39,968 bases of DNA. Source: a virus (Duplodnaviria > Caudoviricetes). The notes under the pieces were generated by a model, which made no database searches, had not been told where the DNA came from, and saw nothing but the letters and a program-made list of their open reading frames with translations. A program made the translations under genes and the position numbers. Location of the stretch: IMG/VR virus record IMGVR_UViG_3300011437_000014, positions 1-39,968 of that record; one strand, 5' to 3'. This document shows positions 1 to 33,632 of the stretch, in pieces (position 1 is the stretch's first letter; every line of letters begins with the position of its first letter).

Positions 1-1
1 A

Positions 2-1237: not shown

Positions 1238-1254
1238 CTTTAAGGAGAATTCTA

Positions 1255-1443: not shown

Positions 1444-1452
1444 AGTATTAGT

Positions 1453-3270: not shown

Positions 3271-3284
3271 AAAACCTCAAGAAA

Positions 3285-3372: not shown

Positions 3373-3379
3373 TGTTTAT

Positions 3380-8233: not shown

Positions 8234-8514
8234 TACTCATCATCCCCATTCTTAATGGTTCTAAGAATAGTTAAAGCTTCCTCTCTAGTTTTAAGCCTAA
8301 GGTCTGGGTTAGTTTTTATTGCTCTTGCTAGATGAATAGCCTCAGAAACTGCTCCAATAGATAGTCCTAATTTTTGAGCAGTATCAGAAACTTTCCATTT
8401 ATCATTACGTTTTCCTGATTTATCTTTTCCTTTAGTTGTATGATAATCTAAAATAAATCGGGCGCGTTCATACCAACGTCTTTCTTCGCGTATCTTTCTT
8501 ATGTCATCACTCAA
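8233..8514 (-). CDS. HTH DNA-binding protein (ParB-type HTH half)
   Basis: WKVSDTAQKLGLSIGAVSEAIHLA helix-turn-helix; TAATG-coupled to the polymerase gene. Confidence 0.7.
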   Translation of the reverse strand: MSDDIRKIREERRWYERARFILDYHTTKGKDKSGKRNDKWKVSDTAQKLGLSIGAVSEAIHLARAIKTNPDLRLKTREEALTILRTIKNGDDE

Positions 8515-8539
8515 CCTTTTCCTCTTTTCCAGATTAGAG

Positions 8540-8603
8540 GCAAAAAGAACATGACTAGCCTAGTAGTGTGTAATCTGAAGAGAATACTCTTTCTAGGCTA
8601 GTC
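8540..8603 (-). terminator. Hairpin with U-rich tail, possible terminator or processing stem
   Basis: GACTAGCCTAG (8553-8563) and CTAGGCTAGTC (8593-8603) form a perfect 11-bp inverted repeat, followed on the minus strand by ATGTTCTTTTTG. Confidence 0.45.
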
Positions 8604-8722
8604 CTTACCCTCTTTTGCTAGCACTATTGAATCCGCTCCCTCGCCAGTTTTATTAGCACCCATATGGTTATGCTAATTAGCTGCTTACACGGTTAAGATT
8701 CGGCCAGTATATAGAGAGTAAA
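8604..8722 (-). ncRNA. Candidate rod-like structured ncRNA (~120 nt)
   Basis: Nested stems UUACUCUCU/AGAGGGUAA, CUGGC/GCUAG, GAAUC/GAUUC, CAG/CUG and AUUAGCA/UGCUAAU in a GC-enriched gap without an ORF. Confidence 0.45.
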
Positions 8723-8724
8723 CT

Positions 8725-8937
8725 CTAAACTCTTTCTAACGTATCTATTGCTGCTTGAATTTTAATAATCTTTTGAAGATGCTGGTCTTTTAAAGTCTGA
8801 AGTGCCCGTAATCCTTGCCCTTTATAATAATCTTCTTCTGTTTGAACTTGATTATAAGGTTTAGAAGTTTTTGCTGTTTGTTCATCACACATTTTAATTT
8901 TCCTTAAATTATCTACTAGGATTTTGGCCCTTCCCAT
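8725..8937 (-). CDS. Hypothetical protein
   Basis: 70-aa ORF on the operon strand. Confidence 0.55.
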   Translation of the reverse strand: MGRAKILVDNLRKIKMCDEQTAKTSKPYNQVQTEEDYYKGQGLRALQTLKDQHLQKIIKIQAAIDTLERV

Positions 8938-8998
8938 CTAGGAAAGTCTATCTTATTGATTATTCAATAGTATCCTAGTAGATAAACTCTAAACTACC

Positions 8999-9385
8999 CT
9001 AGGTCAAAGGAAGAAAATCTCCGGCCTTATTGGTAACACGATTGTTGAACTTATCATTAATTACCATGACCTTAACTTTTTTCCCTACACAATCATTGGG
9101 ATTAATCTGTGCGGATGTTGCCTCTCCCTTCACTAACTTTTCCCACTCAGCAGCAGGAAATCCACAAGCGATAAAGAAAGCCTTTCCCATAGAAACAGCC
9201 TTCTCACTAACCATGTAATCCTGCAAAGGATACTTTAAACCGTTATGTTCAACTTCGATACCCCACTTATGGAGCATAGAACCATCGTTAGCAGTATCGG
9301 GAGTATAGTGCATAACTTCTCCCATCTTCCAACCCGGTTCAACAACTTCCGCTCTAAGTGCATCCTTTGAGGTTACAGTAATCAT
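8999..9385 (-). CDS. DUF669-like single-stranded DNA-binding protein
   Basis: 'VVEPGW...' start and 'DCVGKKVKVMVINDKFNNRVTNK' end are typical of phage OB-fold SSBs found next to AAA_24 ATPases. Confidence 0.65.
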   Translation of the reverse strand: MITVTSKDALRAEVVEPGWKMGEVMHYTPDTANDGSMLHKWGIEVEHNGLKYPLQDYMVSEKAVSMGKAFFIACGFPAAEWEKLVKGEATSAQINPNDCVGKKVKVMVINDKFNNRVTNKAGDFLPLT

Positions 9386-9427
9386 GTTATATTCTCTTTT
9401 CTTTGTTTGTTGTGGTTGTTGTTTGTG

Positions 9428-9769
9428 TTAGTGTTTGTTAAATTTGGATTTTGTGTTTACCATTATGGGCCTGTCAGTCTCATCCTGACCTTTCTCCGCT
9501 TTAATGTCTTGTTCATTCTCAACCAAAGGATTATCCTTATGGTCTTGAAACATATGAGGAATACTATTATCTATGATAGTATCTAATAACCTCTTAGCTG
9601 CACAAGGAACACAGACAGTTCCGGTGAATTGGGTATCATCAGGACTAATAAATATTAATAACCATCTATTATCAATTTCATACTTTTTAAGCACATCATC
9701 GATAATTAAGGCTATAGCTTTAGCATCTTCAGCAGTTAAATATTTTGGTTCTTTCTTATTTTCAGTCAT
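9428..9769 (-). CDS. Hypothetical protein
   Basis: Probable start MTENKKE at 9769 (the track starts at 9784); contains CVPC. Confidence 0.6.
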   Translation of the reverse strand: MTENKKEPKYLTAEDAKAIALIIDDVLKKYEIDNRWLLIFISPDDTQFTGTVCVPCAAKRLLDTIIDNSIPHMFQDHKDNPLVENEQDIKAEKGQDETDRPIMVNTKSKFNKH

Positions 9770-9932
9770 GAGATAAATCCACATCTTTAGTTAATTTTTT
9801 ACATTCTTTACATTTAATATTTACATAATCTAATTTACCCCCTCTACCTACTGTAGATTGATAATGAATAGAAGAAGCAGCCATAATTTTATGAATTGTA
9901 AATCTTTTACATTTTTCGCAATAAATTTCCAT
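9762..9932 (-). CDS. 56-aa Zn-ribbon protein
   Basis: MEIYCEKCKRFTIH...IKCKECKK; fills the gap; AGGA RBS. Confidence 0.6.
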   Translation of the reverse strand: MEIYCEKCKRFTIHKIMAASSIHYQSTVGRGGKLDYVNIKCKECKKLTKDVDLSHD

Positions 9933-9944
9933 TAAAAAGAAATC

Positions 9945-10790
9945 CTAAAATGAAATAGTCTTCGGTCTATTAGGGTCAGCCGCGGGTGTTGCTTTTAATT
10001 CATCACTAAGCTGATTAAGAACTAATTGATAAGGGTCAGGATTATCTGTGAAATCAAAGTTCTTAATACCCCAAGATGTCTTACAATCATCTAAAGGTGA
10101 GCCTACAGTATTTACCTTATATTTAACTTGTTTATTATTTTCTCCCACACCTTCAAAAGATTTTTCAAATAACCAAATCTCATTAAAAAAGCCTGGAACT
10201 GCCGCGGGCGCTTTCTTTCCTTTTGTAAGGATAGTTCTAATAGTTTCCGTTACCTGTTGTCCCCCTTCAAAATATCTCATCTCATAAGGAGAGATATGTG
10301 CTTCTAATATACAATTAACCCCTTGTGTCTTAAGTTGTTGAAAGAAAGCAACTAAATCATTAATAATAGCAGAATCTTCAGCATTAAAATCTTGAAGTTG
10401 ATTAATAGGGATACCTCCGACCATATTAACCTTAATTCTTTTATCTGCTTTATTTTCTGCTACTTTCTGAGTGATAAGATGATTGAGAATATTATAGATA
10501 AATGAGGTTAGAGAAGCGGCTACAACAGTCTTATAGACGGGACGGGCAAGTATCTCATCCATCTTTTTGTCTATATTATAATACGATGTGCCGATAGGGT
10601 AGGAATCAAACTCTAAATCTTTTAGATTACCTTTATAATATTTAAGAACTGAGTCGAAGCGATTCTCAAAATCAAATACATAAGTAGGCCGGAGAATAGG
10701 AGAAGCGGAAAGAATAGTTTTGCCACTTCCATTAATTCCTTTCGATAAAAGAGATATAACTGGTCTAATTACTGCGTCTTCTGCTTTCAT
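9945..10790 (-). CDS. AAA_24 / Sak4-like ATPase (recombination/annealing)
   Basis: Walker A GINGSGKT, 'VFDFEN', 'ILEAH', 'VPGFFNEIW'; lies between the nuclease and SSB genes. Confidence 0.8.
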   Translation of the reverse strand: MKAEDAVIRPVISLLSKGINGSGKTILSASPILRPTYVFDFENRFDSVLKYYKGNLKDLEFDSYPIGTSYYNIDKKMDEILARPVYKTVVAASLTSFIYNILNHLITQKVAENKADKRIKVNMVGGIPINQLQDFNAEDSAIINDLVAFFQQLKTQGVNCILEAHISPYEMRYFEGGQQVTETIRTILTKGKKAPAAVPGFFNEIWLFEKSFEGVGENNKQVKYKVNTVGSPLDDCKTSWGIKNFDFTDNPDPYQLVLNQLSDELKATPAADPNRPKTISF

Positions 10791-10954
10791 TTTTTAACTT
10801 TCTCCAATTCTTTTAACCTTAATAACCAAGCTTTTGCATTAGAAAATTCCATTCTTTTACCCTTATCATACATATTTAATAATCTAGCATAATGTGATTG
10901 AAGTTTAACAGATTCTTCTAAAGCATGTTCTAATTCATCATAACCAAAAGTCAT
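10787..10954 (-). CDS. Hypothetical 55-aa protein
   Basis: MTFGYDELEHALEESVKLQSHYARLLN...; ATGA overlaps. Confidence 0.55.
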   Translation of the reverse strand: MTFGYDELEHALEESVKLQSHYARLLNMYDKGKRMEFSNAKAWLLRLKELEKVKK

Positions 10955-11118
10955 TTTCTCGGGTCCATTTCTTTAAGTTTAATTTCTCTTTTAACTAAAT
11001 TAAGTGCCTGTAATCTTTCTTGTTGTCCCTTAAGACAGGACTCACAAGTGCAAAGAGTAACTATAATATGATTTTCTTCTAAAACATCTTTAATTAATTG
11101 AAGTTCTTTTAAAATCAT
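10951..11118 (-). CDS. Hypothetical 55-aa protein
   Basis: MILKELQLIKDVLEENH...CTCESC...; ATGA overlaps at both ends. Confidence 0.5.
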   Translation of the reverse strand: MILKELQLIKDVLEENHIIVTLCTCESCLKGQQERLQALNLVKREIKLKEMDPRK

Positions 11119-11423
11119 TTACTCAACCCCTGTTCCAAACCTTTAAAGAAATCTTCTGCACTCTTGAGTTTCTCTTGTTTCTCTTCTTTACCTTTAACAC
11201 AATTAGCACAACAAGGTTCTGTCATTCTCAATGCTCGCCTATCAAGAATCATTTGTTCTTCACATCTATTACATTCCGCTATCTGTCCTCTGAGTAATGG
11301 AGCACTCAATTTAGTTTTCATAAATACATAATGAGTGCAACCAATTTTAATACACTTCATTACCCAGACAGACCTATCGCGTCCAATATCTACGCGGCGA
11401 TAGCGGTGGATGTGCTTTGACAT
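11115..11423 (-). CDS. Cys/His-rich Zn-binding protein
   Basis: Probable start MSKHIHRY; HxH...CxxxxCxH, CxxC and CxxC motifs. Confidence 0.7.
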   Translation of the reverse strand: MSKHIHRYRRVDIGRDRSVWVMKCIKIGCTHYVFMKTKLSAPLLRGQIAECNRCEEQMILDRRALRMTEPCCANCVKGKEEKQEKLKSAEDFFKGLEQGLSK

Positions 11424-11568
11424 TTTACTTACTCTTAGTATCAATTCCTACAATTACATCAAGATTATCAAGGATTTTATCTACTGCTTTACCAAGTGCC
11501 CGAATAGAAACAAAAAGAATAAATAATGTAGCCCACTGTAAAATTTCATTAAGAATGTCCATATAAAT

Positions 11569-12489
11569 TTAAAATTGAGAAGGGTCCCAATCCTTTCCTA
11601 CTGTAAAATATCTTTCTAATTTCTGTTCTCTAACTTCAGGACTAACAGAACAAATGCCGCCATTATACTTATCACTAAATTGACATGCAAAATGACCGTG
11701 AACACAACTAGTAGTATTCATAGGCCAGAATCCATCCTCATAAGAAATAAGTAACTGTTTAACCCAATAAGGTAATGTAACTGTTCTCCACTCTTCTAAT
11801 ATATGAGCATCAAATGGAAGTAACTCCATTTTAAATTTCTGCTCGGGTTTAAGACTCTTTTGAAATCCAAACCTCTGAACCCCAAAAGTATTAACTCCAC
11901 AAGCTATACAATATATCTTAAACTGATTACTCATAGATGTATAAAACCATCGTTCAGCTTCAGTCTTATTATCTACAGGTATCAATTTAAGAGTAGGAGT
12001 TCTTAATCCTAAGTCTATTCTCCCGGTTAAGATAATTCTAAGTTTAAGATTAGAGTCTTCATAAGCTATCTTCTTAAAATGCTGCTCTACAAATACCGGC
12101 TCCCAACTAGAGCTATGAATAAACTTAAAAAAGGATACTAAATTCTGAAATACATCGAGCGCGTCTTCAGCCTCTAAGTTATTAAAAGTTAATGCTGATT
12201 TTTTAGCTGCATCTACTCCAGCTATTGCTGCTATTTGATAATCTCCTGTATTAATTCTTTCTTTCCAATAGGTATGCAATCCTATATGAGCTAATTGTCC
12301 CTTTTCTATAGACTTAGAAACCCCAAAAATAGGAACAAGATGCCTATTGAAAACATAGTTATACCTTGCAGCGCATCCCATAAAAGCGGAGAGCACTTGA
12401 CTGTCAACTTGAACATTAGTCCACCTATCTTCTTTAACTACCTGTAGGTCTGGTTCAGTTGGTTTAATAATATTACTTTCTACTGACAT
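11569..12489 (-). CDS. PD-(D/E)XK Cas4/RecB-like exonuclease with putative Fe-S cysteines
   Basis: N-terminal 'FMGCAARY', 'G..AH', VEQ, GRIDL, VDNKT, QFKIY, and C-terminal C...C.F...C. Confidence 0.85.
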   Translation of the reverse strand: MSVESNIIKPTEPDLQVVKEDRWTNVQVDSQVLSAFMGCAARYNYVFNRHLVPIFGVSKSIEKGQLAHIGLHTYWKERINTGDYQIAAIAGVDAAKKSALTFNNLEAEDALDVFQNLVSFFKFIHSSSWEPVFVEQHFKKIAYEDSNLKLRIILTGRIDLGLRTPTLKLIPVDNKTEAERWFYTSMSNQFKIYCIACGVNTFGVQRFGFQKSLKPEQKFKMELLPFDAHILEEWRTVTLPYWVKQLLISYEDGFWPMNTTSCVHGHFACQFSDKYNGGICSVSPEVREQKLERYFTVGKDWDPSQF

Positions 12490-12497
12490 AATTTTAT

Positions 12498-12761
12498 CTA
12501 TTTTTTATCAATCCACTTAACATTCTTAGTAGTATTAAGCATATTAGCCACTGAGAAAATAGTAGAAGCACTAACAGTTATCTCATGTTCTTCTACTTCA
12601 TCTTCTTCATCTTTAGGTGCATCGGGATGTTTAGCAATAATAACTTCTTTCTTAAAAGTTACCTTACCATCTTCATTACAACTAATCTTAGTATCTCCAT
12701 CTTCAAGAGTAAAAGGCTTATGAACATATCTTTTCATCTTACCTGCACGATTTGGTAACAT
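12498..12761 (-). CDS. Hypothetical protein
   Basis: 87-aa ORF; may start at the internal MKRYVHK. Confidence 0.6.
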   Translation of the reverse strand: MLPNRAGKMKRYVHKPFTLEDGDTKISCNEDGKVTFKKEVIIAKHPDAPKDEEDEVEEHEITVSASTIFSVANMLNTTKNVKWIDKK

Positions 12762-12852
12762 TACCTATTCCTTCCTTCTTTATGACTCATAATATAGATA
12801 TCATGACGATAAAATTTATACCATCTATATAAATATCTAAAGAATTTTCTAA

Positions 12853-13104
12853 TCACTTCTCATCCCTCATCTTAATCATCCTCAAACAATCAAAAAGAAC
12901 TTCAGCTTGAGCACTAAGAGCTTTCAATAACTTAATATAAAGTTCAGGAGAAATAGTAGGATACATAGCTCTTATAGTATAAGCTAATTGATTAACTAAT
13001 TCTTTTTCAGACTCGTTAATACCGTAAAGTTCCCATAATTCCTTCTGTCTTTCTATCATCATTTTAATATCTTCAGATTTTAAATTTTTAAATTCTGAAA
13101 GCAT
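12853..13104 (-). CDS. Hypothetical protein
   Basis: GAGG RBS; abuts the upstream gene. Confidence 0.65.
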   Translation of the reverse strand: MLSEFKNLKSEDIKMMIERQKELWELYGINESEKELVNQLAYTIRAMYPTISPELYIKLLKALSAQAEVLFDCLRMIKMRDEK

Positions 13105-13578
13105 TTAGTCCTCTCTTACTATCGGTTCAATAATAGTAATATCTTTCTTCTTCTTCCAAGAATATCTAATGGTCTGCCATGTTCCGCTTCTAATGGAATG
13201 TTTAAACTCTTTAGGAGTTGCTATCATCCAAGCTACATAATCAACTAAATCTTTATTACGCTCAAGATATGGCTTACGTGGCATCCATCTTACTTGTATT
13301 GCTTCATCCTTATAAGTAATGGTATACCACTGACCGTTATCGTTATTATAAATTCTTCCTTCATTAAAAACCCAACCCCTTTTCTTAGCATCTGTAAGAG
13401 GGAATAAAGTAAATACCCTAATACCAAAATCAAAGGCTATATCAACAGACTCTTTATCAGAACCTATACAATCTCCCGTGCAGAACTCAGTTCCTTTCTT
13501 TAACTCAATAACCTTTAATAGCATATCCTTTTGATATTGAGTCATTCCTTTTTGAGTTCCGGTAAATCCTATTATCAT
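13105..13578 (-). CDS. SLOG-superfamily (YspA/DprA-like) nucleotide-binding protein
   Basis: MIIGFTGTQKGMT, GDCIGSD, YLERNKDLVD and RSGTWQTIRY motifs. Confidence 0.75.
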   Translation of the reverse strand: MIIGFTGTQKGMTQYQKDMLLKVIELKKGTEFCTGDCIGSDKESVDIAFDFGIRVFTLFPLTDAKKRGWVFNEGRIYNNDNGQWYTITYKDEAIQVRWMPRKPYLERNKDLVDYVAWMIATPKEFKHSIRSGTWQTIRYSWKKKKDITIIEPIVRED

Positions 13579-14045
13579 TTCTTTTCTATCTTCTCTAAAG
13601 AATCTGCAAATTCTTCTACAGTTAGAGCAGACCCAATTAAAGCTGTTCTAGCATCCATATTACCTAATTTTTCTTGATAAGATGCTAAACTTCTTTGTTG
13701 ACTAGCCCAATTTCTCATGTTCTTAATAAGTGTTTTAATAGTCATCTAATCATCCTCAAATTCCCAACCACATTCTTTACACTGCTTAACTTTCCCTTTA
13801 CTAATCAGTGCGTTCTTAGCTTTACAATTAGGACAAGTTCCTTCTGTCATATTTTATCTTTCTTTAAAAGATTAAAGCAAAGAATAACAATTATTATGGC
13901 TAAAGTAGTCATAACCAATCACTCAACGCAAGATAGTTAATATAATAACTAAGAGTCATTCCCTTAGTTTTAGCTTTTGTCCTAAGAATCTCTAATTGAA
14001 ACTTATAAGCTCCATAACTACCATGAGAACGGCGCGTTCCATTCT
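13575..14045 (-). other. String of translationally coupled micro-ORFs (<60 aa), including a CxxC..CxxC peptide
   Basis: Examples: MTEGTCPNCKAKNALISKGKVKQCKECGWEFEDD and MTIKTLIKNMRNWASQQRSL...; exact boundaries are uncertain. Confidence 0.4.
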
Positions 14046-14311
14046 TACTTTTCTTTAATCTCTTTAATGTCTTCTTTGCTGATGTCGTGGAACTTGATTT
14101 CTTCGACATATCTATCTAACCTCTTATTAAAATCAATAACTGTCTGGTCAAATTCATGACTAACATAACCGGCTCTTTTTAAGAAATAATCATTAAGAGC
14201 TATTGCTTCTTCTTGAGTTAGAACTAAAAATTTTTCATGTTTATCAAATTCTTGTCTAGGACAAACAATAACTCCTTCTTTTTCATCTAATGCAACTAAG
14301 ATAGTATTCAT
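14045..14311 (-). CDS. Hypothetical protein
   Basis: TAATG-coupled 88-aa ORF. Confidence 0.65.
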   Translation of the reverse strand: MNTILVALDEKEGVIVCPRQEFDKHEKFLVLTQEEAIALNDYFLKRAGYVSHEFDQTVIDFNKRLDRYVEEIKFHDISKEDIKEIKEK

Positions 14312-14553
14312 TAAGTTTCTTCTTTCTTCTTAGCAACCCCATTTAATCTTTCAATAGCCTGTTCCAGCGCGTTATAATCTCCAACTAATTGATTATTAAT
14401 CTTTCTAATATTACTATTACTATGAGAGTATCTTAAATCGGTAGCAATCATATGACGTATCTTACCTAATAGCATCATATGAGTATGAATAACATCGACA
14501 GGGATAAAATAAATCTGCTCTCCATTTAGTTCTGAAGGTCTAACTTTGCTCAT
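14311..14553 (-). CDS. Hypothetical protein
   Basis: Coupled 80-aa ORF. Confidence 0.65.
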   Translation of the reverse strand: MSKVRPSELNGEQIYFIPVDVIHTHMMLLGKIRHMIATDLRYSHSNSNIRKINNQLVGDYNALEQAIERLNGVAKKKEET

Positions 14554-14729
14554 ATCTTTATCTCATCAATAGGTCCACTAATTTCTAAATCTCCATAAAC
14601 TTCAGATAATATTTTAACTTCATCATCTTCTTCTTCAAACATTTCTCTAGCTTCATCTATAGTATCAGCTATTACTTCAACTACTTCTGTAATAGTTTGC
14701 TTTCTAGTAGCTCTAAATAATCTTTTCAT
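14550..14729 (-). CDS. Acidic 59-aa hypothetical protein
   Basis: MKRLFRATRKQTITEVVEVIADTIDEAREMFEEEDDE...; ATGA overlaps at both ends. Confidence 0.6.
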   Translation of the reverse strand: MKRLFRATRKQTITEVVEVIADTIDEAREMFEEEDDEVKILSEVYGDLEISGPIDEIKI

Positions 14730-14920
14730 ATATCAAATCCCTGCTCTCGTTTAGTTGCACAAGAGTTACAGTATCCATAATCAGGTCGGAGTTTAACTTT
14801 CCTTCCACATTCTTCACATTTCTTCCAAACTGATTCTTTCTGAACGCGGTGATAAAACTCTACATCTTCTTCTGATTCTGTTTTATAATGACCAAAGTTA
14901 TCATCGTAATAAGATGGCAT
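14726..14920 (-). CDS. Small Zn-finger protein
   Basis: CEECGR...YCNSCA; GGAGG RBS. Confidence 0.7.
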   Translation of the reverse strand: MPSYYDDNFGHYKTESEEDVEFYHRVQKESVWKKCEECGRKVKLRPDYGYCNSCATKREQGFDI

Positions 14921-14922
14921 AA

Positions 14923-16995
14923 TTATTTCCTCCCAAACCTCTTCTTAATAATCATCTCAGAGAGTTCTCTAATAATATCATTCTCTTCCCACTTAATATT
15001 CTCTTCTCCTACATTCATACTTTTTCTGAAGAAAGTCCTCTTTCTTTCAACAATCTCAGTGAGCATGGAATCAACAGTCTGGTCAGCGATGAGATATGGG
15101 ACTCTAATTGATACTTTCTTAGGATTTTTATCCTCATTGAAAAGGAAATCCTGAAGGTATGTCGGATAATCTTGATGAGTAAGCGGTCTTGAAAATCTAA
15201 GTTCTGCTTGTTCTTCATTTGCAGGATTCCATTGTCTTTCTAACATCATTGCGTTCTGACAGAACTGAATATTTAGTCCCTCTCCTGATGCTAGAGTAGA
15301 GGCTATTAAGATTCTGCATTGGGGGTCATTTTTAAACTTCTCAATAACTCTATTTCTCTCTTCTGGTCCTCTACCCCCAAATAATCGGAGAGTAGTTTTA
15401 TAACCTCTCTCTTTTAGAAGTTTATCTAATCCTTCAAAAGTTTTAGCCACATCACCATTCTGAAGCATATCTCCCACATCAATATGATGATGAAAGATAG
15501 TTAATTTCTCTGCTTCATCGGGAGAATTTTCTAACCACTCTAATGCATCTTCTATTGCTATAGGAGTCTTAGCAATACCTGTAATATGCTTAAGGACCAT
15601 TATCTGTGCTGCAATATTCTTCGGGTCTTCACCATCTATCATTGCAGCTTTGATAATATGAGCTACTCTTTCTTCCGCTTGGTCATAAGCTTTAGCATGT
15701 AGAGCTTCCATATCTACATATCTAATCTCTCGTCTAATTTTAGGAAGGTCCGGGAGAACTACATCTCTCATCCTTCTAATAACTAAGTCTTTTGTATACT
15801 CTCTGAAGACGGGTATATTTCTAATTCCGCCTTGTTTAATTTTTCCGGTTCTATTGTCAAGGTATGTTTCCACCCAACGATTTTTAAAGTTCTCATAACT
15901 CGGAAACCTAACCGGGTCCAACATATTAAGAACCGGAAAGTATTCAGAACCTCTATTCTTCCATGGCGTTCCGCTAAGCGGGATAAAATATTCTGCTTTT
16001 GATACCAGTTTTCTAAGTTCCGCGGTTCTAGTAGAATCTGGATTTTTAAAGTGTTGTATTTCATCAGCTACTACCGTCTTATACCCAATAGAATCTAACT
16101 TCTCACTACTCATATTTCTGAGAAGGTCCATTGAGATAATATAGAGTTTAATTCCGGGAAGAATTCTTGAGCGCGGATTCTCAATAATCTGTCCCATGAA
16201 ACCAAATCCACACCATTCAAGAGCTTCTTTAAGAGCTTGAAGTTTAAGAGTAGTTTTGCATACCCAAAGAACAGGAGTAGTTACTTCTTTATGAGCAAAA
16301 CAAAATAGTAAAGCTTGAAGAGTCTTTCCTAGTCCCGGCTCATCAGCTATTAATGCTCTACCTCCTGAAGTCTCAAGAAATCTAATACCCTCTATTTGAT
16401 AAGGATAAGGTCTCTTTCCTGATTCTGTTACATAATTATCTAAGTCAAATCCAGAAGATTTAATAGATTCTGCTTTAACTAAATGTCCACATTTTAATTT
16501 AGTCCAACGGACCCCGGACATTATGATAGAAGATTGTTCCTCTGCCTGTTTACTACAAGTCGGGCAAAGTTTATTTACCCTATGAAACTGTCTCTTAGGT
16601 TTAGTCTCTGATGGTTGAATAGCTCTACCATTATCAAGATTAATATATGCTCCACAAGGTTTAGGGTCAGAAAGTCCTATCTCAATACATTTACTCTTCC
16701 ATACTTCATTATGCCCATGAGAGTGACCAACTAGAGCGTGTCCTACCTCATGTAAGATAGTATCTCTTAAGTCTGCTTCCGAGCGCGTATTGAGATGAAT
16801 TAAACTTAATTCTATTCTCTTTGAGTCATGCCAGCACCTTCCAATATATTTCTCTGATTTAGAAAATATTGTGCGCCATCCTTGTTCCCAAAGACTTTTA
16901 AATGATGTTGCATCAGTCCTTGCATCGAAGATTAATGTTCCTAATTTCTTTAATTGTTCATCGCACATTTCTTGTGCGTCATATTGTCTAACCAT
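14923..16995 (-). CDS. SprT-like metalloprotease / Zn ribbon / SNF2 (HARP/SMARCAL1-like) helicase fusion
   Basis: N-terminus GRC...IELS...DTILHEVGHAL...HGHNEVWK. Helicase motifs PYQIEG, DEPGLGKT, DEIQH, LSGTP, GEGLNI, WNP..EEQA..R. Likely start MVRQYD at 16995 (the track starts at 17031). Confidence 0.9.
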   Translation of the reverse strand: MVRQYDAQEMCDEQLKKLGTLIFDARTDATSFKSLWEQGWRTIFSKSEKYIGRCWHDSKRIELSLIHLNTRSEADLRDTILHEVGHALVGHSHGHNEVWKSKCIEIGLSDPKPCGAYINLDNGRAIQPSETKPKRQFHRVNKLCPTCSKQAEEQSSIIMSGVRWTKLKCGHLVKAESIKSSGFDLDNYVTESGKRPYPYQIEGIRFLETSGGRALIADEPGLGKTLQALLFCFAHKEVTTPVLWVCKTTLKLQALKEALEWCGFGFMGQIIENPRSRILPGIKLYIISMDLLRNMSSEKLDSIGYKTVVADEIQHFKNPDSTRTAELRKLVSKAEYFIPLSGTPWKNRGSEYFPVLNMLDPVRFPSYENFKNRWVETYLDNRTGKIKQGGIRNIPVFREYTKDLVIRRMRDVVLPDLPKIRREIRYVDMEALHAKAYDQAEERVAHIIKAAMIDGEDPKNIAAQIMVLKHITGIAKTPIAIEDALEWLENSPDEAEKLTIFHHHIDVGDMLQNGDVAKTFEGLDKLLKERGYKTTLRLFGGRGPEERNRVIEKFKNDPQCRILIASTLASGEGLNIQFCQNAMMLERQWNPANEEQAELRFSRPLTHQDYPTYLQDFLFNEDKNPKKVSIRVPYLIADQTVDSMLTEIVERKRTFFRKSMNVGEENIKWEENDIIRELSEMIIKKRFGRK

Positions 16996-17227
16996 TATGT
17001 TGTCCTGAAACAATAATCCACTTAGCTCCACATCCTACAGCTAAGCAATGATAATGAATATGTCTTCTATACTCTAAGGAATAAATACAATCATCATTTG
17101 CTGGATTATGAGGATTACAATATACCACTTGAATTGGTCTTCTGTTACAATTCCAGCATGAATGTCTAAAGTTACTAAGATTGATTGTTTGCTTTTTGTG
17201 ATTCTGTAAATAATTTTGCATAACCAT
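16988..17227 (-). CDS. Cys/His-rich Zn-binding hypothetical protein
   Basis: CWNC...HIHYHCLAVGCG.KW; start uncertain. Confidence 0.5.
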   Translation of the reverse strand: MVMQNYLQNHKKQTINLSNFRHSCWNCNRRPIQVVYCNPHNPANDDCIYSLEYRRHIHYHCLAVGCGAKWIIVSGQHNG

Positions 17228-17429
17228 TACTAAGCATCTTAAGATTATCTTCTAAAATGTTAATCTTCTGATTAAGCGTCTCAATCATTGAGAGAAGATT
17301 AGTAATTCTTTCACTTTGGGTTATATTCATTTCCCCTTGAACAGTTAATACCTCTCTAATTAGCTTATTCGATTCTGCCATTGTCTCTACTATTAATAGG
17401 ACATCTTCAATAGGAACAGATAAGCTCAT
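17175..17429 (-). CDS. Coiled-coil hypothetical protein
   Basis: Heptad pattern; GAGG RBS; ATGA overlap. Confidence 0.65.
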   Translation of the reverse strand: MSLSVPIEDVLLIVETMAESNKLIREVLTVQGEMNITQSERITNLLSMIETLNQKINILEDNLKMLSNGYAKLFTESQKANNQS

Positions 17430-18364
17430 TTCTTTTCCTCAGCATTATCAGAAGAAGTCCCAACTACCTTATCAAACTCTCTTTGTTTCATTACCTTGAC
17501 CATTTCTTGATATTTCTCAAGAGACATTCCAAAAGATTTAGCCTCTTTCTCCATTGCAGTTAGCTTAACCTTACTCGGTCCTTTAGCCGCCTGTTCTCTT
17601 CCCTTCGTTATAGAAGAGATATTATTCTGAGCGCGCTCATTAGCCTTTACCTTATTAATGTAATCGACTAGAGGAACGAGATTTTCTTTGATTTGGAATA
17701 GCATTACTTGGAGAAGTTCAATCTTACTTTCTACCTGCTCTTTACTTACATTAACTAGAGCAATAGCATGATGATTGAAAATGTCATTACGATGATTTAG
17801 AACATGGTCAGAAGAGGTAAATCTGAGAGGCTCAGGAATCTGAAGTAAATCGTAAAATTGAGTCAACGCGGGCGAGTCTACTCTTATCTCAGTCTTAACT
17901 TTCTCTAATTCTGCTCTTTCTACTCCTAAAACATTCTTAAGGAGAGGTTCATAACATTCTTCACAGATAAAATAGTCTTTCTCCCACATTCTAGTTGCGA
18001 GTTTAAGACCAAATCCGCGTTCGAGGCATGATTGACAGTATTTCTTACCATCATTAGGAGCTTTCTTATTGTCTAGAAAATGAGTAGGTTTAATTGTGCA
18101 TACTTTTTCTTTATTACTATCTGGTATTAAATGAGGTTCTCCACAATCATCGCAAATGTAATGAGTAGGCTTTTCCTCTTTTATTTGGGGTTCATCGGTT
18201 CCTAGTAATATCTCAGGTTCAGGTTCTTTAATAGTTGCTCTTTCAGCTAAACTTAAAGAACCATTCCTCTTAGCAAAGTAACAAGAGGTGCATAGTTCCC
18301 CTGTTATATTAGGAGAGGTTACTTCCTTCTCTATCCCCAGAGTTTTACATTGATTACAGTTCAT
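17426..18364 (-). CDS. Multi-Zn-finger protein with C-terminal helical domain
   Basis: Several CxxC pairs (CNQC/CTSC, CDDC, CQSC/CEEC). Confidence 0.75.
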   Translation of the reverse strand: MNCNQCKTLGIEKEVTSPNITGELCTSCYFAKRNGSLSLAERATIKEPEPEILLGTDEPQIKEEKPTHYICDDCGEPHLIPDSNKEKVCTIKPTHFLDNKKAPNDGKKYCQSCLERGFGLKLATRMWEKDYFICEECYEPLLKNVLGVERAELEKVKTEIRVDSPALTQFYDLLQIPEPLRFTSSDHVLNHRNDIFNHHAIALVNVSKEQVESKIELLQVMLFQIKENLVPLVDYINKVKANERAQNNISSITKGREQAAKGPSKVKLTAMEKEAKSFGMSLEKYQEMVKVMKQREFDKVVGTSSDNAEEKK

Positions 18365-18367
18365 AAA

Positions 18368-18571
18368 TTAGTTCTCTAAAGTAGAGAGGAAAATTCTTTG
18401 AGCTTGTATATTTTGAGAAGCTATTTGAGCTAACTCTAAACTGGATTGAGAAGCAACTATTTTGGCATCTTTAATATTATGTTCTCTACCTACAATAGTA
18501 AAAGTATTGTAGAGCACATCAAATCCAATCGAGGAACGTCTAATTTGGAACATTAGATTATTCCAATCCAA
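18368..18571 (-). CDS. Hypothetical protein
   Basis: Short ORF; start could be MFQIRR at 18553 (TAATG coupling). Confidence 0.55.
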   Translation of the reverse strand: MDWNNLMFQIRRSSIGFDVLYNTFTIVGREHNIKDAKIVASQSSLELAQIASQNIQAQRIFLSTLEN

Positions 18572-18750
18572 AAAGAATGTTCTTCTTCGTAATTAGGAGG
18601 ATTATTACCTATTGACCAACTTAAATCAGTAGCTACAAATTCTCCTAATTTCTTTAGAAGTTTATTTATATCTGTTGATTTGAATCCCATTTCTAAATCA
18701 CTATCTTCGTTTAATGAGGTGATGTAAAGATAATACATTTTAAACTCCAA
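18553..18750 (-). CDS. Hypothetical protein
   Basis: Likely start MYYLYI behind GGAG. Confidence 0.55.
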   Translation of the reverse strand: MEFKMYYLYITSLNEDSDLEMGFKSTDINKLLKKLGEFVATDLSWSIGNNPPNYEEEHSFWIGII

Positions 18751-18798
18751 TCTTTGAGATAATCTACTAACAACACGTTATTCTAACGAATAGGTAGA

Positions 18799-19089
18799 TT
18801 AATCTGGCCATTTCTTGAGAAATTTCTTTTGTTCAATCTCAATATTTTTCCTTAAATGTTCAATTTGTAATCTAAGTGCATCCCCTAATCCATTCCTATA
18901 ACCCATTCTAATTAATGAGTCATTAGATTCTTTAGAGATAAAAAGTAAATAATCAACGCATCTGAGTTTAAGTTCTACTTGCTTTTCTTTCAGCGCGTCA
19001 ATATCTTTTTGCTCTTCAGGATTAGCCATTAAAATACTCCCAAATAAAGTCAATATCTCTCTGACTATTAATCTGATAATCTTTCCCAT
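18799..19089 (-). CDS. Hypothetical protein, first gene of the leftward operon
   Basis: 96-aa ORF directly downstream of the 19297-19325 promoter and its leader. Confidence 0.6.
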   Translation of the reverse strand: MGKIIRLIVREILTLFGSILMANPEEQKDIDALKEKQVELKLRCVDYLLFISKESNDSLIRMGYRNGLGDALRLQIEHLRKNIEIEQKKFLKKWPD

Positions 19090-19130
19090 TAATTGTGATA
19101 ATCATCTTCTTTTCCTTATTAAGTCTTGAA

Positions 19131-19585
19131 CCATAATAATTCTAACTTAAAAATATCATATAAGCTAGAGGTTCAAGTTCAGTCAACTATCAATCAAAGG
19201 TCGGCTCGGAGTCGGTCAAAGGTCGGTCAAGGCGGACCCCTCCTAAGTCGTTGACTCCGAAGGACTTAGCTCGCATACCCTCTCTCTCCCTAGTGAAGTA
19301 TACCACCCTCTGCCCCGCCTGTCAACTACCCCTAGGGTGTATATGATAGTTCTTCTATATATATATAAAATTATATAAGACACCCCTCTAAGACCCTATC
19401 CAGAGGGGGTGTATAGGGGGGATATATGATAGGGGGGAGAGGGGGAGGGTATCTCGTAAGTCGTTGATGTAGTTAGGGTTAGGTATGATTAGGTTTGACC
19501 GACCTTAGTTCGACCTTAGACCGACCAAGGACCGATTATTGACTGAATATGAACTAAGAAATATATGATATTTAAGAATTATTGG
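19131..19585. repeat. Large imperfect inverted repeat with 11-bp iterons and (TA)6 centre; putative replication origin
   Basis: Mirror pairs about ~19362: ATATCATATA 19153/TATATGATAT 19571, TTCAGTCAA 19178/TTGACTGAA 19547, GGTCGGTCAA 19230/TTGACCGACC 19495, ATACCCT 19275/AGGGTAT 19452. Confidence 0.85.
19297..19325 (-). promoter_or_regulatory. Sigma70-type promoter for the leftward early/replication operon
   Basis: Minus strand reads TTGACA-17 nt-TATACT with an extended -10 TG. Confidence 0.85.
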
Positions 19586-19749
19586 CATTAGGAGAGATAT
19601 TACTGAAATTGGGATACTGATTCCGCGCCTAATGGATATATTTGAAAGTGTAGCGATTCGATACTTTACAATCTCTTTACATTTTACAAATCATATATCG
19701 ATAGGAAAGGATAAGGACGCGACCGATCGGGTAAGTTTATGATAAGACA

Positions 19750-19789
19750 ATAAAAAACCCCAGAACCCTATTTCTAAGGCTCCGGGGTT
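19750..19789 (-). terminator. Rho-independent terminator
   Basis: Minus strand AACCCCGGAGCC...GGTTCTGGGGTT followed by TTTTATT, just downstream of the 19813 stop codon. Confidence 0.8.
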
Positions 19790-19812
19790 AGTCTAACGTC
19801 CTGGGTTAGAGC

Positions 19813-20370
19813 TTACTTCGTGCGGAATATTTCGAGCGTATACTCAGCAGGAACCAAACCAAACTCCTGAAGAGTCCTGTGTGCTGTCTCATCAGAGACG
19901 TTCTTTGTCCGCATTGCATCTCGAATCATACGGGCGTAAGCATTACCCATTGATTCCTCAGTGAGCGGCTTATGCTGATTGAATACACTCTGATAGCGTC
20001 GGTTCTTCGATGAAACGCGAAGGCTATCATTGATTGTTTCCAGAAGCGCGACGACAGCCTTTCCGGTTTCCACAGAACCTTTCAGTGCTTCATTGATAAA
20101 AGCAATCTGGTCATCGGAAAGTTTCGCACCTTCGAGTCTAAGAGCGGAAACGAGAGAAGGAACGACGGGATACTTAAATCCTTCGCTATCGTTCTTGTAA
20201 ATCTCTTTGCCGTCCTCGTCTTTGACGGTAATCTGAAAGGTTCCGATCCTGATTTCGATTTCAGGATATTCCGCGTGAGACTCTACAGCCGCGGCTACAG
20301 CTTCCTGATTCGAAACCTTACCAGAGAGCTTTTCAGTAACCTTGTCTGCGATGGTTTTCTTGATTCTCAT
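19813..20370 (-). CDS. GC-rich monocistronic hypothetical protein, probable immediate-early gene
   Basis: Start MRIKKTIADK at 20370 with AGGTGA RBS (the track extends to 20421); own terminator; codon usage differs from the rest of the genome. Confidence 0.8.
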   Translation of the reverse strand: MRIKKTIADKVTEKLSGKVSNQEAVAAAVESHAEYPEIEIRIGTFQITVKDEDGKEIYKNDSEGFKYPVVPSLVSALRLEGAKLSDDQIAFINEALKGSVETGKAVVALLETINDSLRVSSKNRRYQSVFNQHKPLTEESMGNAYARMIRDAMRTKNVSDETAHRTLQEFGLVPAEYTLEIFRTK

Positions 20371-20712
20371 TGTCGTTTCACCTGTATATGTTTGAGGTTT
20401 AAGATAAAGTATTTCCTTCAAGAGGGTAGAGCTAAAGCCTAAGCCTTAGTCCTATCATTGAGTGACGCGCCTTTATCTTAATCCGGCCCGCGCTGAAGGC
20501 CGCTCGTTCTACCGTTCCTGAATGGCGCCGCGAATGCCCGTCTCAGGATGAGGGAACATCAAGAGGATACCATAAGAGTCAAGACCTGAAACAAGAGAAT
20601 TGTAAAATCTTTTGAACTGGGCACGCGCTGACCATCGCGGTCTAATCCTTTCCTCCCCCAAGCTCCATCCCTAAGAATCATTAACGGTCCCTACCCTATA
20701 TGGCCTGCTAGA

Positions 20713-20873
20713 AGAGTCTCATCTGGGCTACTGCGCGTGAAGTGTGGAAAGCACACTAAGATTGCCCAAATATTAATTATCTTTTTAATTTTATTTTTTT
20801 TTTATTTTACGGGTCCCATCTTTACTTTTAGGAAAGAGTCTCATTTTTATTCTTATAGTTATTAGAGTCTCAT
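20713..20873. repeat. AGAGTCTCAT direct repeats (three, plus one degenerate copy)
   Basis: Copies at 20713-20722, 20835-20844 and 20864-20873; GGGTCCCAT at 20811. Confidence 0.7.
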
Positions 20874-21073
20874 CTATCTATGAAACAAAGTAGTTAAAAT
20901 AAATTATATCCTATCTCATCTAAATCCAGTTAGGTAATGCTAGGCCGAGATAAGGGCCGAGAAGGTAGCTAGGATAAGCCAGGCTAGGATATAGGTAGAC
21001 TTAATCCCTGATTAATAGTTCAGCGCAGGATAAGGTCGAGCGCGGGCTAATAGGTCATCCTAGAGGCTCTCGT

Positions 21074-21236
21074 CTGAAAGTTCAGTTTATCATTTTAAAT
21101 TACTATAATATTTTTAGTTTAGTTAATCTAAGAAAATATGATAAGAGATAGGAGGGATTGACTTTTAATCGGAGGTGTGATAAGATGAAGGAACCTAATA
21201 AAAATAAGCGGACTGAAAGTTCAGACTGAAAGTTCA
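21074..21236. promoter_or_regulatory. Three CTGAA-AG-TTCA(G) palindromic operator-like sites flanking the rightward promoter
   Basis: Copies at 21074-21085, 21213-21224 and 21226-21236. Confidence 0.65.
21158..21186 (+). promoter_or_regulatory. Sigma70-type promoter for the structural operon
   Basis: TTGACT-17 nt-TAAGAT with an extended -10 TG. Confidence 0.75.
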
Positions 21237-21302
21237 TTCTCTTCTATTATGATAACTAGACTATTGTTGAGTTATAAAGGTTAGAAGTGTAAAGAGATTC
21301 TT

Positions 21303-21419
21303 ATGTTTATTATATCCTGTCTTAAATGCAGAAGAAGTTTTGGAAGAGTTGGACATATCTTAATGCATTGGATAGGCAGCGCGTGTAAAGGAATCGAGCA
21401 ACCGGAGTTACCATTATGA
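21303..21419 (+). CDS. 38-aa C2HC zinc-finger microprotein
   Basis: MFIISCLKCRRSFGRVGHILMHWIGSACKGIEQPELPL; ATGA-coupled to the next gene. Confidence 0.6.
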   Translation: MFIISCLKCRRSFGRVGHILMHWIGSACKGIEQPELPL

Positions 21420-21919
21420 ATATTATAGTTCCTGATGAAGAACTTCAAGAAATTAGTATTGAAGATGCTATCAAATCTAATGATAAATCTCAGATTATTA
21501 TTAAGGGAGAATTTCAAGGAGATAGAGGAAAAGGCAGAGATGAATTAACTAAAGAAATTATAGCTCATGATGCGATTGCTTTAGGAGCTAGTAGAGCAGC
21601 AGAAATTCATGGAATAGAAAAACCTTCAGCTTCTAGATATTCTAACGGTCATGATATTAAAGATGAAGATAGCAAAGCTGGAATATTAGCAGCGCGTCAT
21701 AATATTGCAGATAAAGCGACCGCGAAATTAATGCAAGCACTTGATTTATTTGACCCTTCTTGTATTGAGAAGCATGTAGATATAGTCAAGTCAGCTAGCA
21801 TGCTTGCTAATATAGTAGATAAGGTAACTGGTAAGAATAATCAAGGTAATGCGGTCCAATTAATTCTTCATGGACCTAAACAAATTAATATTAATAGTTA
21901 TGAGGTAATTGATGTTTAA
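21416..21919 (+). CDS. HTH protein, putative terminase small subunit
   Basis: GGAG RBS; HTH-like ASRAAEIHGIEKPSASRY; helical middle and C-terminal beta strand; first large gene of the late operon. Confidence 0.55.
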   Translation: MNIIVPDEELQEISIEDAIKSNDKSQIIIKGEFQGDRGKGRDELTKEIIAHDAIALGASRAAEIHGIEKPSASRYSNGHDIKDEDSKAGILAARHNIADKATAKLMQALDLFDPSCIEKHVDIVKSASMLANIVDKVTGKNNQGNAVQLILHGPKQININSYEVIDV

Positions 21920-30341: not shown

Positions 30342-31646
30342 ATGAAACTCTTTGGCCATAGTTTTCCGTGGCATCAGACTTTCGAAGGAAAGTTCTATGC
30401 TGTCACTGAAACTCAGGTTGCAGGTTTAGAACTTGAGCGCGTGCTGCCGAAAGTTCGGACAGTTTTTGAGCGTGATGACAAGTTCTATTCTAATATTGAA
30501 AAGCGCGATGTTGAAAAGATTTCTAATCGACAGATGCGCGTTCCTCTCGAATTACGTCCAGGTGGAAGCTTTGGATATTTTGATGCAGACGGTGGAGATT
30601 TAGGACGTGGCGGGGGACCAACTTGGGATAAGGCAGTGTTAAATTCAGTATTTGTTAGTGAGAATATTGAATATACTAAGCTTATCGAATGGTCTACAGA
30701 TGATAATCGTAAGGCGGTTATTTCTGCTGTCCGTCGTTTAACTGCTACGGCTCTTGATGAATTACGTAGACAGTTAGATGCCCAGATGATGCAGGCAGGT
30801 AATGGTGTAATTGGAACTATTACTACTGCAACTCCTTCTGCTGGCGTTGATACTTATGTTTGCACGACTGACGGTTTCGGCGTTCGCTTAATGCGATATG
30901 GTCAAACTATTCAGGTTTTCGATTCTACCTTAGCAACTCTTCGTGGTAGTGGTGTTATTACTACGTGGGATGTTGTTAATAAAACTGTTGCTGTTACTCC
31001 TTCTATTGCAGGCGCAACAACTGGAGATTTAATCGTTACTAATGGTATTAGTTCTCCTACTTCTTTACCTGCTATTTACGGAGTTCCATATCATCATTCA
31101 AATGCTTCTACGGGAACTTGGTTAGGATTCTCTCGTTCTGCAACTCCTGAAATTCGTGCAAATGGAGTTAATGCGGCTTCTGCTGCTCTTTCATTACCTT
31201 TACCGCGATTGGCTATTAATGCTATTGGCAATCGTGTTGGTTTAGATAATGAATTTTCTCCAGATGCCTGGATGCATCCTTGTCAGGCTCAGGCTTACGA
31301 GGAAATTGGTCAGTTAGTGTCTATTATTCAGAAGACAGCTAAAGATGAAGCCCTGAATCGTTATTTTGGGGATAATATGCAGATGGCTGGTGCTTCTGTT
31401 AAGAAGTCCTATAATTGGGATAAGACACGAATTGATTTCGTTTCTAAGGAAGTTTGGGGCCGCGGAGAGATTCGTCCTGTAGGATTTTATAAGTCTGATG
31501 GACGGTCAATCTTTGAAATTCGTGGAGGTTCTGGCGGTGTAGCAACAGCTGAAATCTTCTATATGTGTGTGGGCACGCAGTTCTTTGTTAATAATCCTGC
31601 TGCTTGTGCATATATTTATGGTTTAGCTGTTCCTTCTGGTTATTAA
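30342..31646 (+). CDS. Major capsid protein
   Basis: 434 aa after the scaffold gene; GAGGA RBS; HK97-like layout; codon bias typical of high expression. Confidence 0.85.
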   Translation: MKLFGHSFPWHQTFEGKFYAVTETQVAGLELERVLPKVRTVFERDDKFYSNIEKRDVEKISNRQMRVPLELRPGGSFGYFDADGGDLGRGGGPTWDKAVLNSVFVSENIEYTKLIEWSTDDNRKAVISAVRRLTATALDELRRQLDAQMMQAGNGVIGTITTATPSAGVDTYVCTTDGFGVRLMRYGQTIQVFDSTLATLRGSGVITTWDVVNKTVAVTPSIAGATTGDLIVTNGISSPTSLPAIYGVPYHHSNASTGTWLGFSRSATPEIRANGVNAASAALSLPLPRLAINAIGNRVGLDNEFSPDAWMHPCQAQAYEEIGQLVSIIQKTAKDEALNRYFGDNMQMAGASVKKSYNWDKTRIDFVSKEVWGRGEIRPVGFYKSDGRSIFEIRGGSGGVATAEIFYMCVGTQFFVNNPAACAYIYGLAVPSGY

Positions 31647-32321: not shown

Positions 32322-33632
32322 ATGTATCAACTTTCAATTTTACTTCCTTCTGGACCTAACAATTCAGAGAAGTTAGCCAGAATATTAACTAATCTTAAGG
32401 AGACTATTTCAGATATTAGTAAAATAGAATTTGTAGTTTGTTTAGATAACGTAATTAATGAAGTTAATATCGAACGAAATGGTAATGTTGTTTATGTTTT
32501 CGCTCCTCCAAGTCAGCATCGTTCAACATTCTTTTTAGAGGCTTGGAAAGCATCAACTGGCCGATTTGTTTTAATGGCTAATGATGATATTATCTTTAAG
32601 ACAAAGAATTGGGATACTTTAATTCCTTATGATAAATATCCAGATGATTTAGTATTATTTTATTTTAAAGATAATCAATTTAATGAATCATTTTCTTGTC
32701 ATCCTATTTGGTCAAGAAAGGTTATGGAATTTGAACCTACATTACTTGACCCGTTATATTACATTACTAAATGTGACAATACTATTTGGGACTCTCATCC
32801 AGGTCATAGGAGACATTATCTTCCTGAAATAGAAATTGAACATATTCAGACTCCTTATGGACCGGAATGGGCGCCTTATTATGAGATGGATAATCGAACC
32901 TACTGGCAGGGAAATTTAGTAGGAATTAGAAATAAGGTTAGACATTGGATTACAGCTCAGACAGAACTTTATAATGCTAATGTTTTAATAGGAGTAGTTA
33001 CAGCAGAATATGCCAGGCGCGCGGATTTTTATGACCATTTAAATGCAATGGAAAGACCTAAGAACTCAATGAATATTTCAGTTCATGGTCAGTCTATTGC
33101 AAATAATAGAAATAAAGTAGTGGATAATGCTTTAGTTTATGGAAGCTCTCATGTTTTATTTTTAGATGATGATGTTATTCCTAAACCCGAGCTTCTCTAC
33201 TCTCTATTAAAGCACGATAAAGATATAGTTTGTGCTTTACAATGTCACAGAAATTTCCCTCATGCTCCTATTTTATTTGGAGAGTATGTAGGAAAAGAGG
33301 GATTTAGAAAATTAAATTTTTCCAATTTAACTGATGGATTAGTAAGAGTTGGGGCTGCCGGATTAGGATGTGTTCTAATTAAAACAGATGTCTTTAAGAA
33401 AATGGAAGCTCCTTGGTTTAGATTTGGAGAATTTAGAAAAGACCAGATGGCGGAAGATACTGGATTTTTTAAACGCGCCGGGGAGTTAGGAATTGAAGTT
33501 TATTGTGATTTAGGTTCTCAAGTAGGTCATATTGCTTCAATGATAGTTAGACCTATTAAGAAGCATATCGGATGGATTGTAGATTACGATACTAATAGTC
33601 AACAAGGTAGTGTGAGTTTTAAAGGATTATAA
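32322..33632 (+). CDS. Tandem GT-A (GT2-like) glycosyltransferase
   Basis: Domain 1: LSILLPS, MANDDII, WD, CDN, IEH. Domain 2: IANNRN, LFLDDDV, GLGCVLIK..VF, AEDTGF, VGHI. Confidence 0.85.
   Translation: MYQLSILLPSGPNNSEKLARILTNLKETISDISKIEFVVCLDNVINEVNIERNGNVVYVFAPPSQHRSTFFLEAWKASTGRFVLMANDDIIFKTKNWDTLIPYDKYPDDLVLFYFKDNQFNESFSCHPIWSRKVMEFEPTLLDPLYYITKCDNTIWDSHPGHRRHYLPEIEIEHIQTPYGPEWAPYYEMDNRTYWQGNLVGIRNKVRHWITAQTELYNANVLIGVVTAEYARRADFYDHLNAMERPKNSMNISVHGQSIANNRNKVVDNALVYGSSHVLFLDDDVIPKPELLYSLLKHDKDIVCALQCHRNFPHAPILFGEYVGKEGFRKLNFSNLTDGLVRVGAAGLGCVLIKTDVFKKMEAPWFRFGEFRKDQMAEDTGFFKRAGELGIEVYCDLGSQVGHIASMIVRPIKKHIGWIVDYDTNSQQGSVSFKGL

Follow-up and report, generated by a model that had tools for sequence, protein, structure and literature searches.

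A small gene of an AT-rich phage, called X here, is probably expressed at a very high level, mainly by means of the tRNAs of a host that is richer in GC than the phage itself. The only tRNA encoded by this phage, tRNA-Leu(UAA), probably serves as an optional booster of the late genes and not as a switch. This reading follows from two observations taken together: TTA and other A-ending codons are avoided in every X gene examined, and the use of TTA in the major capsid gene rises with the presence of the phage tRNA. The avoidance in X is conserved among relatives and confined to the reading frame.

The window, that is, the whole stretch of 39,968 nucleotides that was analysed, is a record of an AT-rich phage and is classed as linear and 86% complete. 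The early arm on the minus strand carries a SNF2 helicase, a PD-(D/E)XK nuclease, a family A polymerase and a primase-like gene. Terminase, capsid and an SU10-type adaptor are encoded in the late arm on the plus strand, and X is placed between the two arms (Table 1). The helicase (14923–17031, minus) has an N-terminal SprT-like domain, and the polymerase (5756–8233, minus) begins with a uracil-DNA-glycosylase-like domain. In the related record G002, the polymerase (3188–6634 of L012) has 1148 aa, and its alignment with the 825-aa protein of the window falls into two parts, which suggests an inserted element, e.g., an intein. A SAM methyltransferase-like gene (1453–2205, plus) and a glycosyltransferase-like gene (32322–33632, plus) are found in the late arm.

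Table 1. Positions of gene X and of the associated features in the window.
Feature	Position	Strand	Remarks
Gene X, 185 aa from ATG	19813–20370	-	No family match; TTA-free; GC3 0.48; conserved family; predicted beta-hairpin and helices
Shine-Dalgarno-like AGGTG	20379–20383	-	Ends 8 nt ahead of the ATG at 20370; read from the sequence
Intrinsic-terminator-like hairpin and T tract ending the X unit	19750–19789	-	15-pair stem 19789–19756 followed by a T run; just past the X stop
Nested imperfect palindrome, AT-rich centre at about 19363	19140–19580		Candidate replication origin and/or packaging end
Near-consensus sigma70-type promoter, TTGACA-17-TG.TATACT	19297–19325	-	In a palindrome arm; faces the early genes; top minus-strand site of the window
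tRNA-Leu(UAA)	3285–3372	-	Sole tRNA of the window; towards the distal end of the early arm
Major capsid protein gene	30342–31646	+	ATA 0/25, AGA 1/27, CAA 1/14 but TTA 17/27; internal control
SSB-like gene	8999–9385	-	Named from size and position only; no family match; second-highest GC3, 0.39; TTA 2/7
First seven early genes behind the promoter	14923–19089	-	Ordinary TTA use, 52/138

Codon counts in the window refer to 64 open reading frames that were treated as genes. Over these genes, TTA is the commonest Leu codon (548 of 1071, 51%). The 13 Leu codons of X consist of five CTT, five CTC, two CTG and one TTG, and neither TTA nor CTA occurs. This lack of TTA has a binomial probability of about 1e-4, or about 0.006 after correction for 64 genes. 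With an overall GC of 0.464, X has the highest GC3 of all 64 genes, followed at some distance by the SSB-like gene; the value for the window is about 0.22. The avoidance is not specific to TTA, as other A-ending codons are shunned as well (ATA 1/12, CAA 0/6, AGA 2/11, AAA 5/16). An initial annotation of this DNA had described X as a TTA-free gene in a TTA-rich genome, richer in GC than the other genes and equipped with its own terminator, and had placed a single UUA-reading tRNA near the far end of the early operon. The recount, the comparison of codon usage and GC3 gene by gene, the stem with its T run and the position of the tRNA, about 16 kb downstream of the sigma70-like promoter, agree with this description. 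The 400 nt upstream of the window's own X hold only weak promoter matches (8 of 12). A structured leader upstream of the gene was rejected (z = +0.9), and an Rfam search over 18900–21500 gave no match.

Searches with the X protein returned 13 close proteins and 64 representatives, about 60 of which are credible, and a shorter form of the protein makes up 962 clusters. X and the capsid served to collect 20 related phage records. In nine of these, the gene was detected by a profile of X, at the same place, between a putative small terminase gene and the early genes. These nine relatives use TTA for 1 of 68 Leu codons, whereas the rates of the individual genomes, added up by hand, predict about 25. 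In nine further records, the slot is filled by a TTA-free gene with the top GC3, but these genes were selected for their position and their GC3 rank; a codon count on them is circular and provides no independent test. When their profiles were compared with X, a good link was obtained for two (96.5% with the short form), a weak one for six (28%, 20%) and none for G026, which leaves seven of the nine with a weak or absent sequence link. Over all 19 genes at the position of X, these nine included, TTA is found in 1 of 172 Leu codons against 63 expected; G017 and G020 are outside this set, since their contigs break at that place.

The avoidance acts in-frame only. TTA triplets number 1, 61 and 24 in frames 0, 1 and 2 of the X genes. 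An expectation scaled to the shift in GC gives 23.6 TTA codons over 17 genes against 1 observed (P 2e-10), and in the same genes, ATA is used in 1 of 117 cases against 15.8 expected. Additionally, a promoter-like site scoring at least 10 lies within 400 nt upstream of 12 of the 19 X genes, compared with 34 of 400 random windows. The orientation of X is inverted in four records (G005, G010, G026 and G030), and the gene thus behaves as a self-contained unit. The phage collection contained no cultured or annotated relative for X, for its short form or for the capsid.

The tRNA is optional in this family. Among 30 records found through the capsid, 12 have tRNAs, and all 12 include Leu(TAA), in one case together with Ile(TAT). 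The two closest relatives of the window carry Leu(TAA) too. The 20 records that were classed comprise 13 with and 7 without a tRNA; G030 (52% complete) was left out of this comparison, and G026 (GC-rich, on a long branch) was left out of the pooled tables. The absence was checked by ARAGORN without introns, which found 0 tRNAs in the eight records tested, and the relaxed intron mode gave noise. A tRNA may have been missed, since five of the seven records without one are classed as linear with 94–100% completeness. On the tree used for the tRNA states, which is a terminase tree only, there are at least six changes of state, and the states are unclustered (330 of 500 shuffles were as low).

The median share of TTA among capsid Leu codons is 0.39 in the 13 records with the tRNA and 0.00 in the seven without it (Mann-Whitney p=0.0024). 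The capsid ATA, AGA, CAA and AAA shares and the capsid GC3 do not differ between the two classes (p>0.35), and ATA stays at about 1% in both. Pooled capsids contain TTA in 147 of 361 Leu codons with the tRNA and in 13 of 173 without it (G026 left out), and 11 of these 13 come from one exception, G015, in which no tRNA was detected though the usual slot lies inside the contig (capsid TTA 11/27). The TTA share is 0.48 versus 0.29 on the late strand and 0.33 versus 0.27 on the early strand, and X is TTA-free in either class (0/101 with the tRNA, 1/54 without it). Three strongly supported sister contrasts agree with this (0.30 vs. 0.00; 0.14 vs. 0.00; 0.30 vs. 0.00/0.07). Six sister contrasts give 5 to 1, which is not significant alone, and three of them lie on weak or long branches. 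Together, the sequence comparisons support a tie between the tRNA and TTA use in late genes. The second tRNA of G005, Ile(UAU), lies at L101:1498–1571; the ATA share of this genome, 0.34, is among the highest, and ATA is nevertheless avoided in its X and capsid genes. When six relatives without a tRNA were pooled, TTA made up 25% of the Leu codons in the genes for terminase, portal, polymerase and helicase, so the host must be able to read TTA.

The codon pattern is an unusually clean case of codon compensation, a phenomenon that has already been described, and it fits the quantitative form of compensation set out in the accessible parts of earlier work (PMC4810235, PMC10264068, PMC5683454, PMC12482277). 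Compensation is presented as the most accepted hypothesis for phage tRNAs in the part of the review available (PMC10264068), and deletion of the T4 tRNAs reduced the burst size while replication continued, according to the available text of PMC4810235. The present phage resembles T4 in being AT-rich and in having a tRNA for an over-used A-ending codon. Leu(TAA) is present in all tRNA-bearing records, and the use of TTA in the capsid follows it with one exception. However, T4 has eight tRNAs, including Leu-UAA, whereas this family has one, with six or more gains or losses in its history, and for this reason, one codon in one gene can be compared with and without the tRNA. Such relatives provide clean comparative support for T4-type compensation. 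PMC13015707 compares phages across hosts, and no within-family test of gain and loss was seen in its accessible part. No paper on this phage family or on such a test was found in the literature searched, in which subscription journals were mostly not represented. Codon classes of early and late phage genes differ; here, the split appears to follow the level and the timing of expression, and most early genes are not TTA-poor.

A sequence of events can be proposed. AT-biased mutation would drive these genomes towards TTA, ATA, AGA, AAA and CAA, and selection would clear those codons only from the most heavily translated genes, namely, X, the capsid gene and the SSB-like gene. The phage tRNA would build up from the distal early arm until TTA is no longer costly, so that the late capsid gene could keep TTA and still purge the other rare codons. 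X would be made in bulk before the tRNA, as a unit with its own host-polymerase promoter and terminator, and for this reason it would purge TTA as well.

The initial annotation went further and proposed that X is made immediately and that the remaining programme relies on the phage tRNA in a bldA-like manner. The comparisons support the optimised codons, the age of the gene and the link of the tRNA to late TTA, but they do not support the dependence of the other genes. A timing switch at which all genes but X wait for the tRNA is very improbable. It would explain why X is TTA-free and stands alone, why the sole tRNA lies at the distal end of the early arm and why genomes with the tRNA have a higher late-strand TTA share. 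However, half of all Leu codons in the window are TTA, the first seven early genes use it in an ordinary manner about 15 kb ahead of the tRNA, seven of the 20 classed relatives have no tRNA, with TTA kept in the core genes of the six that were pooled, and each of the two candidate-host genomes examined has a tRNA-Leu(TAA) gene itself (L324, L326). Viable-looking relatives without the tRNA thus largely refute the switch. In Streptomyces, the tRNA and the codon are the same, but TTA is rare there and confined to a gated set of genes, and the regulated bldA tRNA is its sole decoder and is required for these genes (available part of PMC2000904). In the present phage, no Leu codon is commoner than TTA, relatives manage without the tRNA, and the features by which bldA control is defined in that source are lacking. 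The view that X is a recent horizontal import or a locally GC-rich patch with a passive codon bias can hardly be upheld. The flanking non-coding DNA is also GC-richer (0.41–0.46 over 19001–21000), and a local mutational contribution to the GC3 of X is possible. Nevertheless, the avoidance is frame-specific and exceeds the compositional expectation, orthologues with 16–47% identity keep the same bias at the same locus, and no copy of X was found in the cellular genomes searched; on these sequence comparisons, an import is refuted. In another explanation, the tRNA is kept against host anticodon nucleases or tRNA depletion, with the rise of TTA as a by-product. This is a published hypothesis (accessible part of PMC10264068), and the distribution of the tRNA is patchy. 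In the window, the tRNA stands directly behind an anti-defence gene similar to Tad2 (Thoeris anti-defence 2; 3380–3628, minus, Pfam E 3e-25), which ends 8 nt before it. As the driver of the pattern, this explanation is quite unlikely, since the tRNA always serves the codon most inflated by the AT bias, the single extra tRNA, Ile(UAU), reads ATA, and only TTA tracks the tRNA in the capsid. It is compatible with compensation.

The preference of X and the capsid for AAG, CAG, ATT/ATC and CGT/CGC suggests a GC-richer host, in line with the earlier view that X is written in host-style codons; the preference looks optimised for translation. Regarding the identity of this host, there is a weak hint of Acidobacteriota. 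Cellular-looking homologues of the head genes were found in only two of 401 Acidobacteriota genomes, and a tRNA-Leu(TAA) gene is present in each of these candidate-host genomes; the assignment to this phylum depends on G035 (unpublished). In G052 (C46, 21869–49997; L182, L183), homologues of the terminase, portal, capsid, adaptor and a tail-nozzle-like gene are scattered, in a GC-rich chromosome, among ordinary host genes with a GC3 of 0.76–0.81 and almost no TTA, and they are possibly a domesticated phage head module. Searches of 401 and 301 genomes of two other phyla returned only the seed contigs and one weak match. Three capsid matches of 68–69% come from MAGs that belong to three unrelated lineages, and these appear to be phage contigs that were binned wrongly. 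A spacer search of positions 1–20000 of the window against 381 Acidobacteriota genomes was uninformative, as tRNA matches dominate among the matches listed. Cultured Acidobacteriota phages are GC-richer, 51–58% according to the available part of PMC11924767, and none of them matched.

Directly downstream of X lies a nested palindrome of about 430 bp with C-rich tracts around an AT-rich centre. IHF-consensus-like boxes occur in both arms (19244–19256 and 19457–19469), the early sigma70-type promoter is inside one arm, and the outer arrays consist of short repeats (10–11 bp) that differ between lineages. A profile of the palindrome matches 8 of 18 relatives at E<0.01. By eye, the same layout is seen in 12 displayed elements and in most of a further set, on the early-gene side of X wherever it is located, and the palindrome or the AT-rich centre adjoins X in most relatives. 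As is typical of origins, repeats, IHF-like sites and an AT-rich centre recur in a conserved order, and the element is likely a replication origin and/or a packaging end. In 6 of 14 elements, a TAAGT..ACTT box is found no more than 200 nt from the centre, compared with an expectation of 0.012 per 400 bp, and the IHF consensus alone is not enriched over the window. The fuller box, TAAGTnnTTGA-n9-ACTTAG (19244–19269 in the window), which we take from the IHF consensus to be two overlapping inverted IHF-like sites, extends well outside this family, to an estimated 720 viral stretches in the collection. Contigs of G011, G024, G025 and G006 start or stop at or near the palindrome, so that a genome end or a break in the assembly may lie there. 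Ahead of the helicase, a conserved CxxC-rich gene of 312 aa (17426–18364, minus) has subfamilies that parallel those of X. Its product is a candidate origin-binding or helicase-loading protein, as good a candidate for binding the palindrome as X, and the covariation of the repeats with X is inseparable from linkage with this gene.

No consistent match for X, with either 67 or 19 members, was found in Pfam, PHROGs, NCBIfam, PADLOC or PDB sequences. In the ESM Atlas, X matched nothing, and the matches of the short form were all to unnamed viral clusters. The AlphaFold model of X (pLDDT 92, pTM 0.72) predicts a long beta-hairpin and three helices, the last of 34 residues, followed by a small helical bundle; the hairpin, the long helix and the C-terminal helices would be shared by the short form. 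Foldseek searches with the two models gave nothing at E<=0.001, and the absence of a match does not show a new fold. Ribbon-helix-helix and HU/IHF-like folds were compared, the short form presumably having a ribbon-helix-helix-like spacing, and the result was not convincing (VIA best Z 5.0, with an rmsd of 2.7 and 48 residues aligned in the C-terminal helices only; next 3.6). The dimer modelling covers the short homologue from G018 and not the window's own X. It predicts an intertwined homodimer with a score of 0.56 (best of three controls 0.00), with a contact agreement of at least 90% between runs and pLDDT of at least 74; the mark used is attained by most solved pairs (20 of 30) and by a single chain in only 1 of 23 cases. 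An Asn is invariant in 67/67 and 120/120 sequences, with conserved basic residues at +4 and +8 from it. The N-x7-R/K spacing resembles, as we take it, a bZIP basic region, and this reading was set aside because the Asn is placed at the modelled dimer interface.

Three roles can be considered for X. A bulk dimer next to a two-fold symmetric array of repeats is most simply read as a DNA-architectural or origin-binding protein, and X may tentatively be regarded as an abundant homodimer of this kind, acting on the adjacent element as phi29 p6 does. However, the X proteins are weakly acidic, with a net charge of −1 to −7, and the palindrome could equally be bound by the product of the 312-aa gene or by terminase. 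Such acidity is more in keeping with a host-takeover or anti-defence protein, e.g., a nuclease inhibitor, a DNA-end protector or an RNA-polymerase binder, which would be needed in bulk at entry under the same codon logic. This second role is possible, if on the unlikely side. The stand-alone unit with its free orientation, the near-consensus promoter in 12 of 19 records and a divergence much faster than that of the capsid (44–47% against 71% identity to the two closest relatives) speak for it. On the other hand, X is far less acidic than Ocr, the classical, strongly acidic DNA mimic, and its slot is filled in all 19 records that cover it, which would be more typical of a core function. X might also be expressed outside the lytic programme, in a carrier state, in superinfection exclusion or as a repressor of the early promoter, while the tRNA is silent. 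This would explain a near-complete purge in X but not in the neighbouring early genes, and a predicted dimer with its own promoter and terminator adjoins the repeats that flank the early promoter. Such a role is doubtful, as a tyrosine integrase was found in 0 of 20 records (control 14/14), no close integrated prophage was among the genome matches and repressors are usually expressed weakly. Well-known examples of such proteins are phi29 p6, an abundant early DNA-architectural protein, and T7 Ocr and lambda Gam, which are first-expressed anti-defence proteins. X would resemble them in being small, predicted to be dimeric, probably abundant and early and located beside an origin-like or end-like element; no link in sequence or fold was found, and the likeness is a functional analogy with no homology claimed.

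Why phages carry tRNAs is still argued, with codon compensation and defence evasion as the main positions. In this phage family, the variable stands by itself: a single tRNA came or went on six or more occasions, and the use of TTA in the capsid follows it, whereas five control measures do not. A TTA-free gene in a genome with tRNA-Leu(UAA) can mark heavy expression on host tRNAs, with no switch. X itself is a conserved and probably abundant protein for which no family or fold was detected, from a large uncultured phage lineage, and it is worth a structure. More speculatively, X may be the founder of a large family, with 962 clusters in the short form alone and no detected fold relative. It would be a core protein, a dimer expressed at a massive level, and its task would be to open or organise the symmetric origin or genome end beside it. 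The lineage would be widespread, AT-rich and podophage-like, possibly infecting Acidobacteriota, and its single tRNA, repeatedly gained and lost, would retune the capsid codons each time. If this is true, the gain and loss of the tRNA in this family would be a ready-made natural experiment for the codon-compensation hypothesis.
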